A stretch of 64,000 nt of DNA from Parcubacteria group bacterium GW2011_GWA2_43_13 (GCA_000999025.1 LCFM01000004.1:1925-65924), one strand, 5' to 3'; positions 1,831-60,925 are shown, counted from the first letter of the stretch. The notes: generated from the sequence alone by a model not told the origin. Translations and numbers: made by a program.

Positions 1831-2758
1831 CTGTTGCCATAGCGCCTGCACTGATTTCCGCGATCTCGCGTGTAATATTAGCTTGTCGCGCCTGATTATA
1901 CGCAAGTTGTAAATCGCTGATCATTTCCCCTGCTCTGTCTGTTGCATTTTTCATTGCAATCATGCGCGCGGAATGTTCAGATGCGCGTGAATCCAGTAGT
2001 GCCTTGTATACCAGCACTTCTATTAAATAAGGAATAAGGTGCTGGAACACTGTTTCTGGTGATGGTTCAAAAATATAATCAGCACGCGTCCCTCCCGCTC
2101 TCACGTCATACCTCACCCCACCCTCTCCTATGTTAGGAGAGGGGGACGACGCAACTTCCGCAATCTGCTCAAATATGGAAATATCAATCGGCAATAACTT
2201 TCTCACCACCGGGCGCTGAAGAATCGTATTCACAAAATCCGTATACGCAATATACACCTCCCGATACTCTTGTTTTATAAAACCTTGCGTTGCAATATGC
2301 GCAATCGGGGTAACCTCATTCATAGTAAAATGGTCGCCAATACCTGAAAAATCCGCACTAATCGGCATACCCATGCGCCGCGCAAAATCACGCCCCTTTT
2401 TTCCCACAGACACAATATCCAAATCATGAGGATGATCCTTAATCAACGGCAATACAGCGTTAAAAAGGTTAATATTTAATCCGCCGCAAAAACCGCGATC
2501 AGCGCTGATAAGAATAAGCCCCACTTTTGCGTTTACAGGCGACTGCTCCCAAAAAGGATGAAAATGTGAACCTGCCAAATGTTGAGTTAAATGGTTGAGA
2601 ATATTCAATGCGCCTTGTGCGTATGGATTCGCCTCTTGAGAACGTTTTTGCGCTTTTTTCATTTTAGACGTTGCGACCAATTGCATTGCACGCGTAATCT
2701 GCCGCGTATTGGTTACGGACTTTATTCTGCGTTTTATATCGCGTGTATTTGAAGACAT
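1826..2758 (-). CDS. atpG: F1Fo ATP synthase gamma subunit
   Basis: 310 aa; N-terminal IKRRIKSVTNTRQITRAMQLVATSKM and C-terminal ITREIAEI are typical gamma-subunit motifs; carries an in-frame palindromic element insert (SPSPNIGEGG). Confidence 0.9.
   Translation of the reverse strand: MSSNTRDIKRRIKSVTNTRQITRAMQLVATSKMKKAQKRSQEANPYAQGALNILNHLTQHLAGSHFHPFWEQSPVNAKVGLILISADRGFCGGLNINLFNAVLPLIKDHPHDLDIVSVGKKGRDFARRMGMPISADFSGIGDHFTMNEVTPIAHIATQGFIKQEYREVYIAYTDFVNTILQRPVVRKLLPIDISIFEQIAEVASSPSPNIGEGGVRYDVRAGGTRADYIFEPSPETVFQHLIPYLIEVLVYKALLDSRASEHSARMIAMKNATDRAGEMISDLQLAYNQARQANITREIAEISAGAMATV
2111..2152. repeat. palindromic element family B (cctcaccc..ccctctcct-N4-aggagaggg..gacgacg), in frame inside atpG
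   Basis: inverted repeat ccctctcctatgttaggagaggg; the same architecture recurs about 10 times in the window. Confidence 0.6.
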
Positions 2759-2842
2759 ATAACGAATAACTCACACATCCGCCAGCTTCCGCCAAAGGCG
2801 AATCTGCCTCTGGCAGTGGCAGACACATGCCACACAAATCTG

Positions 2843-3268
2843 TTAATCAACTTTCTCAACTACTCCATTTAATGTTGCAAAATAGGTCTCTATAGCCAGG
2901 TCTGGGAATGTCTGTTTGATATACTCACCTGCTTGCTTGAGTTCTGATTCGTGTTTGGCGTATTCTTGCTCATCTCCCTCACATGCCCCTTTCCCGCCAT
3001 ACGCACCACAGTCCTCATGATTGATCAGTATCACTTTTTGGATATGGTGCAAATTATGCGCGATTTCAATTTGCTTTAACAGCAAAGCGCGATTGTGTTC
3101 ATCAGCAGGTGTCGTGATATTCAAAACCCCGCCAGCAATGCCGACTCTATCATGATCTCCAATAAGATGTTGCGATTCCAACCATGCATGGATTGACTTT
3201 TGAAATCGAAAATCAATGCAGGTAAAAACTATAGTTGAACATGAATGAGACATAGTGGTGAATGACAA
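2843..3268 (-). CDS. small beta-carbonic-anhydrase-like protein
   Basis: 141 aa; CIDFR (CxDxR) and HEDCG (HxxCG) zinc-ligand-like motifs; inserted between atpA and atpG. Confidence 0.4.
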   Translation of the reverse strand: MSFTTMSHSCSTIVFTCIDFRFQKSIHAWLESQHLIGDHDRVGIAGGVLNITTPADEHNRALLLKQIEIAHNLHHIQKVILINHEDCGAYGGKGACEGDEQEYAKHESELKQAGEYIKQTFPDLAIETYFATLNGVVEKVD

Positions 3269-58307: not shown

Positions 58308-58324
58308 ATATCATCTTTCAATGT

Positions 58325-60925
58325 TTACTGCACCACCATATTGATTACTTTCCCCGGAACATAAATTTTTTTCACAACATCTTTGCCAGATATCCATTTT
58401 TGAATTTTGATATCCTGCAACGCTTTGATGATAGCTTCTTCTTCTGTTATATCTGTCGGTATTGCAATCTGCCCGCGAACCTTGCCATTAATTTGCACCG
58501 CGATGGTGATGGTTTCGTCTTTGATGAGTGCCTCATCGTACTCCGGCCATGGTTGGGTATCTAAATATCCTTCTTGATGAAGAACTTCCGACCAAATTTC
58601 CTGCGCGATGTGCGGGGCGAATGGAAAAAGGAGTTTAAGAAAAACCTCACCCCTACCCTCTCCTTGGAAAGGAGAGGGGGACGACGACCTCACCTCTCCG
58701 CCATCCGCCAGCTGGCGAAACGAACTCTCCTTGGAAAGGAGAGAGGGAACGCACGCCTCCCACTCATGCAAACAAATCATCAATGCGCTAATAGCGGTAT
58801 TAAACCGCATGTTTTCTATATCTTCGGTAACTTTTTTGATGGTTTTATGGAGGACACGCTCCCACCGCCCCCTAACCCCCTCCTCGGGCAGGAGGGGGAA
58901 CGCGACAGCTCCTTCTCCTAAAGTAGGAGAAGGATGGGATGAGGTCTGAAGATACAATTGGTATACTCTATCCAAAAATCTTCTCATCCCCACAATCCCG
59001 CGCGAAGCCCAGGGAAGCGCGTCTTCAAACGGCCCCATAAACATTTCGTACATCCGCACACTATCCGCGCCATATTCTTTTACCAGGTCATCAGGATTTA
59101 TCACATTACCAAGCGATTTTGACATTTTTCTACCATCTTCTGCGAGCACCAACCCTACATTACGTAATTTTATAAACGGCTCATCCCCAACTTCTTTGGG
59201 GATCATGCCATGATCAAACAACGCTTTGTGCGCAAATCGCGCGTACATCAAATGTAAAACCGCGTGCTCTGCTCCGCCGACATAGGTATCAACCGGCATC
59301 CATTGTTTGATTGCCTCTTGCGATGCAAATTCTTTTTCATTCTGCGGATCGCAAAACCGCAAATAATACCAAGCAGAACACATAAAGGTGTCCATAGTAT
59401 CTACTTCTCGCTTTGCAGTACCGCCACATTGCGGACACACGACGTTTTTTTGAAAATCTTTTGATTGCGCAAGTGGCGATTCGCCATGCGGTTTAAAATC
59501 AACATCAGTCGGGAGCATCACCGGCAACTGATCTTCTGGCACTGGTTGCTGGCCACACGTTTGACAGTAAACGATGGGGATTGGCGCGCCCCAGTAGCGT
59601 TGTCGTGATATTAGCCAATCTCGCAGGCGATATTGCGTTACCCGCTTACCACCAACTTTTTCTGTTATTTTCCACTTCGCCTCCTCGCTATTCATACCGT
59701 CGAATTCGGCGGAGTTGATCATGATTCCATCGCCCGTATACACCGTCGCTGTAGAGACGCTCCGTTGGAGCGTCTCACTGTCCGAGACGTCCCCACGGGA
59801 TGTCTCTACAACCGAACGCACAGGCAATCCATATTTCTCCGCAAACTCAAAATCCCGCTCGTCATGCGCAGGCACCGCCATAATCGCACCGGTGCCGTAT
59901 GACCCGATGACATAATCTGCCACCCAAATCGGAATTTCTTTGCCTGTCGCCGGATTGATGGCTTTCGCGCCCTTCAACTCAACCCCTGTTTTTTCTTTTT
60001 GCAGTTGCGTACGCTCAAGTTCTGTTTTCTTTTGCGCGTTTTCTACATACAGCCGAATTTCGTTGGCGTTCTGTAGAGACGGGGTTAACCCCGTCTCTAC
60101 AATGAGACGAACAAACTCATGCTCTGGCGCCAGCACCAAATATGTTGCCCCATATAACGTATCTGGTCTGGTTGTAAAGACGTCAATGTGATAATTGACA
60201 ACTGACAACTGACATTTGATAGCAAAACCGATCATCGCTCCCTCGCTTTTCCCTATCCAATTCTTCTGCATCACCCTAATCGGTTCTGGCCAATCAATTC
60301 TATCCAGCCCTTCAATCAACCGATCCGCATATTCGGTAATGTTCAAAAACCACTGTTCAAGCTCTCGCTGAACAACCTTATTGTTGCACCGCTCGCACGC
60401 GCCATCTATCACCTGTTCATGAGCAAGTACGGTCTGGCATGACGCGCACCAATTCACTGGCGCTTTCTTTTTATACGCAAGCCCGTGTTTATATAAAAAT
60501 AAAAACATCCACTGTGTCCAATGGTAATAATCTGGCGATGATGTATTCACCTCGCGGGACCAGTCATAACTCAACCCCAATGATTGTATTTGCCTACGAA
60601 ATATTTCAATGTTTGCATTCGTAGAAACCGCAGGTGGCACCCCTTGTTTAATGGCGTAATTCTCCGCAGGCAATCCAAACGCATCCCATCCCATTGGATG
60701 CAAAACACTGCGACCTTTCATGCGCAAGTATCGGGTATAAATATCCGTTGCTGTATATCCTTTAGGATGCCCAACGTGCAGACCGGCGCCAGAAGGGTAC
60801 GGAAACATGTCAAGGACATAACTATGAACACGTGCCAAATGACTATGAACATTTGACACGTTCCAAACGTTATCCTTCAGCCAACGCTCCTGCCACTTTT
60901 TTTCTATAAGTTGATGATTATACAT
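58325..60925 (-). CDS. leuS: leucyl-tRNA synthetase
   Basis: 866 aa from MYNHQLIEKKWQERW; HVGH-like and KMSKS motifs (KMSKSLGN); contains four in-frame palindromic element insertions. Confidence 0.9.
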   Translation of the reverse strand: MYNHQLIEKKWQERWLKDNVWNVSNVHSHLARVHSYVLDMFPYPSGAGLHVGHPKGYTATDIYTRYLRMKGRSVLHPMGWDAFGLPAENYAIKQGVPPAVSTNANIEIFRRQIQSLGLSYDWSREVNTSSPDYYHWTQWMFLFLYKHGLAYKKKAPVNWCASCQTVLAHEQVIDGACERCNNKVVQRELEQWFLNITEYADRLIEGLDRIDWPEPIRVMQKNWIGKSEGAMIGFAIKCQLSVVNYHIDVFTTRPDTLYGATYLVLAPEHEFVRLIVETGLTPSLQNANEIRLYVENAQKKTELERTQLQKEKTGVELKGAKAINPATGKEIPIWVADYVIGSYGTGAIMAVPAHDERDFEFAEKYGLPVRSVVETSRGDVSDSETLQRSVSTATVYTGDGIMINSAEFDGMNSEEAKWKITEKVGGKRVTQYRLRDWLISRQRYWGAPIPIVYCQTCGQQPVPEDQLPVMLPTDVDFKPHGESPLAQSKDFQKNVVCPQCGGTAKREVDTMDTFMCSAWYYLRFCDPQNEKEFASQEAIKQWMPVDTYVGGAEHAVLHLMYARFAHKALFDHGMIPKEVGDEPFIKLRNVGLVLAEDGRKMSKSLGNVINPDDLVKEYGADSVRMYEMFMGPFEDALPWASRGIVGMRRFLDRVYQLYLQTSSHPSPTLGEGAVAFPLLPEEGVRGRWERVLHKTIKKVTEDIENMRFNTAISALMICLHEWEACVPSLLSKESSFRQLADGGEVRSSSPSPFQGEGRGEVFLKLLFPFAPHIAQEIWSEVLHQEGYLDTQPWPEYDEALIKDETITIAVQINGKVRGQIAIPTDITEEEAIIKALQDIKIQKWISGKDVVKKIYVPGKVINMVVQ
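58645..58762. repeat. palindromic element family B, two tandem units in frame inside leuS
   Basis: cctcacccctaccctctccttggaaaggagagggggacgacg..ccgccagctggcg..ctctccttggaaaggagagagggaacgc. Confidence 0.65.
58858..58945. repeat. palindromic element family B (compound), in frame inside leuS
   Basis: ccccctaaccccctcctcgggcaggagggggaacgcgacagctccttctcctaaagtaggagaaggatggg. Confidence 0.6.
59751..59810. repeat. palindromic element family A, in frame inside leuS
   Basis: gtagagacgctccgttggagcgtctcactgtccgagacgtccccacgggatgtctctac encodes VETSRGDVSDSETLQRSVST. Confidence 0.65.
60073..60100. repeat. palindromic element family A, in frame inside leuS
   Basis: gtagagacggggttaaccccgtctctac encodes VETGLTPSL; identical core to the intergenic copy at 37413. 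Confidence 0.65.

Follow-up and report, generated by a model that had tools for sequence, protein, structure and literature searches.

The DNA considered in this study, hereafter the window, is a single 64-kb stretch of a Parcubacteria/Jacksonbacteria genome of the candidate phyla radiation (CPR) that was assembled from a metagenome. It carries approximately 13 copies of a short structured repeat, which we term family B, and 8-9 of these lie in frame within four protein-coding genes: atpG, which encodes the ATP synthase gamma subunit (1826..2758, minus strand), recG (19728..21857, plus strand), tsaC of the Sua5/YrdC family (57645..58307, minus strand) and leuS (58325..60955, minus strand; translation probably begins at the ATG at 60925). 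All four genes are intact. Specifically, each yields Pfam domain matches on both sides of its insert (for AtpG, PF00231 with E = 1.4e-91 over residues 4-308), in agreement with a preliminary description of this DNA in which the host reading frames were said to be full length. That description also termed the hosts essential genes, which is normally true of leuS and tsaC; atpG and recG are not essential in all bacteria. In terms of its sequence and layout, family B is a local variant of the BoxC/potential intrastrand triplex (PIT)/TMECO repeat class in an unusual, in-frame location, and is not categorically new.

Family B elements are 45-55 nt long and, when read on the G-rich strand, begin with a CGTC-type tag (often CGTCGTC), followed by a pyrimidine arm CCCTCTCC(T), a loop of 3-7 nt, a complementary purine arm (A)GGAGAGGG, a second loop of 1-3 nt and a further G-rich arm, GGGTGAGG(T). 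This third arm repeats the purine arm in mirror order, such that antiparallel alignment of the two places a G·G:C, A·A:T or T·A:T triad at each position, the arrangement of the class II purine motif. The sequence CCTCACCCC, previously taken for the left flank of a palindrome, is this structural third arm. As a single strand, the hairpin and third arm are predicted to be able to fold as a purine-motif intrastrand triplex. Two variant copies have all three arms altered in concert, namely 31137-31181 (CCCCCTCC / GGAGGGGG / GGGGGAGG) and 58911-58944 (CCTTCTCC / GGAGAAGG / GGATGAGG). The DNA hairpins are stable for most copies, with z from -2.5 to -5.8 (ViennaRNA, the hairpin part only being modelled). 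The full CGTCGTC tag is found at 2144-2151, 31860-31869 and 58679-58686, as well as in copies from the related loci L126 and L127, and is CGTT, CGCC or TGCC elsewhere.

The behaviour of the third arm was also followed in a metagenome scan whose pattern specified only the tag and hairpin and left the third arm free. Among the 109 distinct hairpins obtained, 46% are followed 0-6 nt downstream by a perfect 8/8 triad-compatible arm, compared with 5% when the third arm of the same hairpins is scored against the purine arm of another sequence class and 0.4% at random positions on the same contigs. The arms themselves vary, with GGAGAGGG followed by GGGTGAGG and GGGGAGGG followed by GGG[A/T]GGGG. The third arm is structurally constrained, and the conserved property is the mirror relation of the arms, not a fixed sequence.

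Within atpG, the copy at 2108..2151 reads CGTCGTCC-CCCTCTCC-TAACATA-GGAGAGGG-TG-GGGTGAGG-TAT on the minus strand and supplies the peptide VASSPSPNIGEGGVR (AtpG residues 202-216). The recG copy (20737..20781) is likewise on the minus strand; the gene is on the plus strand, so that the C-rich strand is sense and encodes TSPQPSPCKGEGGI at residues 338-351. The tsaC element is a degenerate inverted dimer (57943..58022, no strand assigned) whose third arms face outward and which contributes PQPPLSRKWEGAFPLLRIREGEGGL at residues 98-122. In leuS there are four copies: a canonical, CGTCGTC-tagged copy on the minus strand (58642..58686; peptide RSSSPSPFQGEGRGEV, residues 756-771), a second minus-strand copy with a CGCCAGCTGGCG palindrome nested in loop 2 (58689..58755; peptide ACVPSLLSKESSFRQLADGGEVR) and an inverted dimer (58862..58944; peptide SSHPSPTLGEGAVAFPLLPEEGVRGRWE; -25.9 kcal/mol, z = -5.0) made up of a minus copy at 58862-58906 and a plus copy at 58911-58944. 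The nested 12-14-nt palindrome, (C)CGCCAGCTGGCG(G), is present at 31825-31840 and 58702-58725 of the window, in loop 2 of two family B copies, and in loop 1 of the atpG copy of locus L249, and it resembles a still smaller repeat entering the loops of a larger one.

The four intergenic copies, all on the minus strand, sit just 3′ of a stop codon inside an operon. The first (31137..31181) lies in a type IV secretion system (T4SS)-like cluster, between two genes that point the same way, and forms a DNA hairpin of -14.1 kcal/mol (z = -5.8). It is followed by a CGTCGTC-tagged copy at 31816..31869, in which a 14-nt palindrome, CCGCCAGCTGGCGG, is nested between the purine and third arms, and by a partly decayed copy at 33861..33902 with one hairpin and one triad mismatch (z = -1.9). 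The last is a canonical copy at 50841..50889 (-14.7 kcal/mol, z = -4.8), which is enclosed by an outer inverted repeat, GAATAC...GTATTC, and lies upstream of a 3202-aa open reading frame (ORF). A decayed remnant, also on the minus strand (41091..41129; repeat family D2), adjoins two GTAG-type palindromes at 41144-41202. The T4SS-like cluster includes two T4SS-pilin-like proteins, a TraG/VirB4-like ATPase and PrgI and accommodates three of the four intergenic copies; after it come giant ORFs of 3202 aa and 1222 aa, the latter with TIG domains, and cluster and giant ORFs together take up 26988-36671 and 41212-54585.

A role of the intergenic copies as ribosome-binding sites had been proposed, given the Shine-Dalgarno-like AAGGAG in the palindrome. 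The usual spacing of a Shine-Dalgarno sequence is 5-10 nt, and both candidates are too far from the next start codon, AAGGAG by 34-40 nt and the GGAGG/GTGAG of the third arm by approximately 14-25 nt. We reject this role on that basis.

Several scans indicate that family B is a true repeat family, as had been claimed. The core CTCTCCT-N5-AGGAGAG, with at most two mismatches, matches the window 9 times, where 0.10 matches are expected from 100 dinucleotide shuffles, and the 34-nt family B consensus matches 3 times against an expectation of 0. A strict three-arm scan, in which an 8-nt pyrimidine arm had to be followed by its complement and by a third arm able to form triads, with no more than one mismatch per relation, returns 8 copies in the window, whereas 20 Markov controls gave 0. 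Its relaxed version returns 13 rows compared with 0-1 in the controls; the row at 31841 is a false plus-strand reading of the 31820 copy. Grouping of repeats places the family B copies in families D2-D4, and at gathering thresholds Rfam identifies two tRNAs only, with no family for the element. Every coordinate given in the preliminary description contains a copy. Its inventory was incomplete for leuS, where there are four copies, listed the tsaC inverted dimer without recognizing it as such, and lacked the remnant at 41091-41129.

An assembly artefact is excluded because the AtpG protein bearing the element is found in identical form on 23 contigs, the four locations listed coming from independent samples and sources. 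The identical gene is also present on MHJS01000026.1 (GCA_001818105.1), and the identical AtpG, LeuS and RecG proteins bear the names 'Candidatus Jacksonbacteria RIFCSPLOWO2_02_FULL_43...' or 'Parcubacteria group bacterium GW2011_GWA2_43_13'.

With respect to coding capacity, the genic copies keep the reading frame, as stated in the preliminary description, and the peptides quoted there agree with our translations. They also contain no stop codon, and their lengths are divisible by three. The arms read as Pro/Ser and Gly/Glu codons in either orientation (CCC-TCT-CCT...GGA-GAG-GG, or PSP..GEG), and insert-spanning peptides include VASSPSPNIGEGGVR and SSSPSPFQGEGRGEV. In all four intergenic copies the loop is TTATAAA, which in the PSP..GEG frame of the G-rich strand gives TTA-TAA and hence a stop codon. 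In every genic copy that uses this frame the stop is gone, the corresponding codons being TTC-CAA, TTA-CAA, TTG-CAA or AAC-ATA. Moreover, the genic copies make use of both orientations and of no fewer than two reading frames (PSP..GEG and PLL..EEG). This loss of the stop codon, together with the variety of frames and orientations, argues for genic copies that are translated under purifying selection, and makes a function at the level of the peptide less probable. Comparison with orthologues and structures locates the inserts in loops and inter-domain linkers. An AlphaFold2 model of LeuS that drew on an alignment of 11 sequences and was poor overall (mean predicted local distance difference test score, pLDDT, of 46) has both insert regions as predicted coil between helices.

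Comparison with relatives indicates that the inserts were gained and are not ancestral, as the preliminary description had proposed: they are absent from most of the LeuS, AtpG, RecG and TsaC orthologues compared, and the counter-evidence named in that description, the same peptides at equivalent positions in unrelated lineages, is not seen. Specifically, the two C-terminal insert regions of LeuS are missing in P0004 (69% identity) and in all more distant Parcubacteria orthologues. In P0002 (77%) the first copy of region 2 is present as a clean 42-nt addition and the second is absent; P0003 (77%) contains both region 2 copies along with four more at two other sites. The copy at 58642-58686 is missing in P0002 and in more distant LeuS proteins and present in P0003, and at the site of 58689-58755 locus L126 holds a plain 42-nt copy that lacks the nested palindrome. 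The AtpG insert is present at 85% identity and missing at 67% identity or less, and the loop that receives it comprises 7 residues in solved gamma subunits. RecG is approximately 24 residues longer at its insert site than solved homologues, as is TsaC at the dimer site relative to solved TsaC/Sua5 structures. Both the AtpG and RecG inserts are confined to relatives at 81% identity or above.

Several of these sites are occupied by different elements in different relatives. The RecG of an 86% relative (P0242, locus L248) has a GTAG-type palindrome, GTAGAGACGCCCCAGGGGGGCGTCTCTAC, between identical flanking codons in place of family B, and RecG proteins at 66% identity or less have neither element. 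Likewise, an 81% AtpG relative (P0123, locus L250) carries a GTAG-type element in the loop that holds family B in the window. The tsaC dimer is orthologous to a dimer in L127, and L126 has a different single family B copy at nearly the same place. One LeuS site contains family A, the second repeat of the window described below, alone in the window, A together with B in L127, and nothing in L126. In the T4SS-like cluster, the intergenic copies keep their position in L248 at 83% nucleotide identity. Judged from these alignments, the loops are insertion hot spots shared with GTAG-type palindromes, and the reuse of sites suggests either that the proteins tolerate inserts only there or that new copies target existing hairpins. 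The claim of insertion is thus upheld as lineage-specific gain and needs revision as to clean addition, as several copies replace part of a variable loop or occupy a site at which a relative has a GTAG-type element.

Family A consists of GTAGAGACG...CGTCTCTAC and of GTAG-tagged palindromes such as GTAGAGACGGGGTTAACCCCGTCTCTAC and GAGACGCCCC..GGGGCGTCTCTAC, with sites at 18781-18814, 25577-25600, 37414-37441, 41144-41202 and, within leuS, 59754-59813 and 60073-60100. It is read in frame in leuS (VETGLTPSL), occupies the family B sites in RecG and AtpG of close relatives, and is a better candidate than family B for a classic GTAG repetitive extragenic palindrome (REP).

LeuS displays further additions in other CPR lineages. 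In Candidatus Falkowbacteria LeuS (P0008; L246, 6001-8925), an in-frame IS200-like Y1 transposase domain (PF01797, 59 bits) occupies residues 273-387, immediately ahead of the editing domain and at or beside the position where L127 LeuS has its triplex-element dimer. A 30-nt perfect palindrome, GTTAGGTTGGGTTTTAAAACCCAACCTAAC, is located directly upstream of the Y1 domain, and a second copy is found at a different hot spot of LeuS; the whole resembles a unit of transposase and repeat within an essential gene. Among CPR bacteria, many LeuS proteins reach 940-1220 aa and have extra NUDIX (PF00293) or alpha/beta-hydrolase (PF06821, PF12697, PF00561) domains, and domain accretion on LeuS seems to be common in CPR.

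In terms of known repeats, elements of the BoxC/PIT type have been recognized since the 1990s. The motif was called BoxC in Escherichia coli and later received the names PIT element and TMECO, the TMECO consensus being CCCTCNCCC-N3-6-GGGNGAGGG-N3-GGGNGAGGG with one mismatched triplet allowed; it is carried by E. coli and over 260 other genomes, and the genomic sequence around motif sites shows raised local variability (PMC4666352). The family B copies at 2111, 20741, 50841 and 58645 fit this consensus with one mismatch per arm, in every case at the same triad (C:G·G to T:A·T), and the remaining copies keep the layout with altered sequence. Family B shares with the class its three-arm layout and a near-identical sequence, its multi-copy state, occasional inverted dimers, the lack of a known transposase and a copy number that varies between close relatives. 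It is set apart by a ninth triad that is A:T-rich (T:A·T), a frequent 5′ CGTCGTC, AT-rich loops (TTATAAA), the occasional nested 14-nt palindrome and a strict strand bias in the window. The clearest difference is one of location: the 23 copies of E. coli K-12 are all intergenic, with no link to mobile elements (PMC4666352), whereas 8-9 of approximately 13 copies are in frame within genes here.

The class is also not confined to one lineage. A 25-base pattern, CCTCACCCC-N1-3-CCCTCTCC-N3-9-GGAGAGGG, has exact matches in more than 10 phyla among the matches listed, which include Proteobacteria, Bacteroidota, Ignavibacteriota, Planctomycetota, Verrucomicrobiota, Chloroflexota, Acidobacteriota, Omnitrophota and others. 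The motif is found in 4368 of 5426 complete E. coli genomes, one example being an inverted dimer in the hrpB-mrcB spacer. In the other phyla, 19 of 122 evaluable copies (16%) are inside long ORFs, compared with 55% of control positions, and 9 of the 10 such ORFs tested had a Pfam match and are real genes. Genes with in-ORF copies include those for HsdR, PriA, UDP-galactopyranose mutase, LigA, a radical-SAM enzyme, dihydrolipoamide dehydrogenase, GlnE and CheA. Strict copies lie within long ORFs in 6 of 8 cases in the window and in 11 of 11 in loci L126 and L127. Across phyla, in-frame inserts of the BoxC type are thus under-represented in genes yet widespread, and the CPR lineage is unusual in that most of its copies are genic. 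The PriA case (L102, 1774-4404, on a contig of 39% GC) has its in-frame BoxC-type copy at residues 211-222, followed at once, before the helicase core, by an inserted DUF559 domain (Vsr-like endonuclease) at residues 235-342.

Two other groups of repeats invite comparison. The preliminary description likened family B to the Rickettsia palindromic element (RPE), and this holds for behaviour, namely the in-frame colonization of genes; no sequence relation to RPE is apparent, one not having been tested for, and the BoxC class spans phyla and not one genus. RPE-1 is also much longer, at about 100-150 bp. Like RPE and intragenic REPs, family B is a structured repeat that enters genes in frame and adds 10-30 residues, affects genes for DNA repair and replication and for tRNA synthetases, and can be inserted several times or as a dimer in one gene. 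The CGTCGTC tag recalls the superfamily of CGTC-tagged REPs, to which RPE-4 and RPE-6 belong and whose terminal unpaired tag is CGTC or one of the variants TGTC and CCTC (PMC3733652). The four CGTC-tagged REP families were considered and set aside as a match: they call for a stem of 8-9 bp with a 4-5-nt loop, and family B, whose stem is 8-10 bp, has G:C at the tag end of the stem, not A:T at positions 1-2, and a 9-nt mirror arm, not a CCA-like tail (PMC3733652). With REPs, REP doublets (REPINs) and their REP-associated tyrosine transposases (RAYTs), family B has in common a short hairpin that ends on one side in a conserved, unpaired tetranucleotide, the occurrence of inverted dimers, persistence by vertical descent combined with turnover, and a presumed single-strand intermediate. 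It differs in its CGTC-like rather than GTAG tag, in the third arm and in the absence of a RAYT from the window; GTAG, which marks the hairpin foot in the REPIN/RAYT system, is lacking in family B and found in family A of the window. We found no literature that links BoxC to RAYTs or describes these repeats in CPR genomes.

The orientation of the copies is of interest for how they might arise. In all eight single copies the G-rich strand is the minus strand, and this includes the copy in recG, a gene transcribed from the plus strand; plus-oriented copies occur only as partners in the two inverted dimers. Because the GC skew of the plus strand is uniformly negative and the genes are nearly all on the minus strand, the G-rich, triplex-capable strand is probably the lagging-strand template, as judged from 64 kb.

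We consider it likely that family B is a non-autonomous, selfish or near-neutral repeat that persists in tolerant surface loops or linkers. New copies may be made via a folded single-strand intermediate on the lagging-strand template, in which case the element would be copied in trans by an enzyme (an HUH/Y1 transposase of the RAYT kind, which moves REPs, is one example) or by a replication or repair process; our confidence in any specific enzyme is much lower than in the repeat's selfish or near-neutral nature. In a gene-dense genome, selection would then retain only copies that are 3n long, free of stops and placed in tolerant loops, and gain and loss would take place on the time scale of closely related species.

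A number of points weigh against this interpretation. The strand bias and the genic fraction of the copies are small numbers drawn from 64 kb of genome. No transposase, and in particular no PF01797 (Y1) domain, was found among the approximately 39 ORFs of the 64-kb window scanned against Pfam. No target-site duplication or clean filled-versus-empty pair was recovered from relatives at 77-83% nucleotide identity whose sites are reused, and several sites look more like exchanged loop sequence than like a simple insertion. In leuS, the copy at 58642-58686 differs in loops and tag from its orthologue in L127 and is identical to it at 24 of 24 arm positions, whereas leuS overall has 77% nucleotide identity and 48.5% identity at four-fold degenerate sites; such conservation fits selection or gene conversion better than it fits neutral junk. 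Finally, the literature associates no transposase with BoxC/TMECO or CGTC-tagged repeats (PMC4666352, PMC3733652), and an E. coli oligonucleotide that formed a stable triplex in vitro by circular dichroism and nuclear magnetic resonance had no counterpart detected in vivo (PMC4666352).

The conserved leuS arms also bear on the possibility that the folded nucleic acid is useful to the host, be it as a programmed replication or transcription pause, a recombination hot spot or an mRNA-stabilizing hairpin between cistrons, with selection keeping the copies, in-frame ones included. Such a role would also accommodate the covariation of the three arms, the placement of all four intergenic copies just after a stop codon in an operon and the conserved position in L248 of those in the T4SS-like cluster. 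A further point in its favour comes from the tsaC hairpin, where an A:T pair of the window is T:A in L127: the change is synonymous in one arm and Trp/Arg in the other, and the base pair is retained. Stems can, however, stay conserved without selection through template-switch correction of quasi-palindromes, and the conserved cases could be explained by selection, by gene conversion from a master copy or by such self-correction. Moreover, mismatches show visible decay of the tsaC dimer and of the copies at 33861 and 41091, presence and absence differ among close relatives, and another element family can fill the same site. PIT elements in E. coli also had neither promoter nor terminator activity in an earlier study, as that study is cited in PMC4666352. 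On balance we regard a host function of the fold as unlikely.

That selection acts instead on a Pro/Gly-rich peptide serving as flexible loop or linker, the DNA repeat being a by-product of convergent codon use, would account for the position of the inserts in loops and inter-domain linkers and for the recurrence of PSP..GEG peptides. This explanation is very improbable. The same DNA is found between genes, where that frame contains a stop codon; genic copies occur in either orientation and in two frames; conservation is at the nucleotide level and extends to third codon positions and the non-coding tag, and the 25-base pattern is mostly outside ORFs in unrelated phyla (the 16% against 55% given above). 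What is seen is the opposite of a peptide kept through synonymous turnover of its DNA. Equally hard to credit is that the genic copies are untranslated, whether because ribosomes skip them or because they are excised from the mRNA, as happens to GC-rich hairpin inserts in some mitochondria. The copies do form stable hairpins inside coding sequence, and translation is indicated by sequence only; a bypassed element, however, needs neither a 3n length and freedom from stops, which all genic copies have, nor the mutation of a would-be stop codon. A selfish or near-neutral repeat in tolerant loops thus remains the explanation that we prefer. A more far-reaching proposition, to which we assign a low probability, extends it to a structure-defined mobile class across phyla, in which the machinery would recognize a folded single strand and would not be a classical dedicated transposase, arm covariation would be actively maintained even in essential genes, and the element would represent an overlooked general source of Pro/Gly-rich loop insertions with a preference for the sites of other small palindromes.

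The window has additional repeats apart from families A and B. Those of the TACGAAT / ATTCGTAGATTAGGATTG type (families D5, D8, D10 and D14) are at 1734-1824, 6156-6281, 36631-36693, 55334-55447 and 60910-60972, where they overlap or sit just upstream of minus-strand start codons and may be a shared promoter or leader element. A 247-nt direct repeat with 96% identity (13284-13530 and 16230-16476, 2.9 kb apart) flanks a toxin-antitoxin-like gene (helix-turn-helix and SocA/Panacea) and restriction-modification fragments, and genes for an MjaI-like endonuclease and an N6/N4 methylase adjoin this region.

The presence of the same motif in frame within conserved genes means that orthologue alignments can date gains and losses of the repeat and expose hot spots that it shares with GTAG-type palindromes. 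Such alignments also make it possible to tell selection acting on the DNA arms apart from selection acting on the peptide that they encode. Taken together, these observations bear on protein annotation, in that the recurrent PSP..GEG(W/R)GE peptides of annotated proteins in many phyla are to be read as repeat-derived inserts and not as functional motifs.

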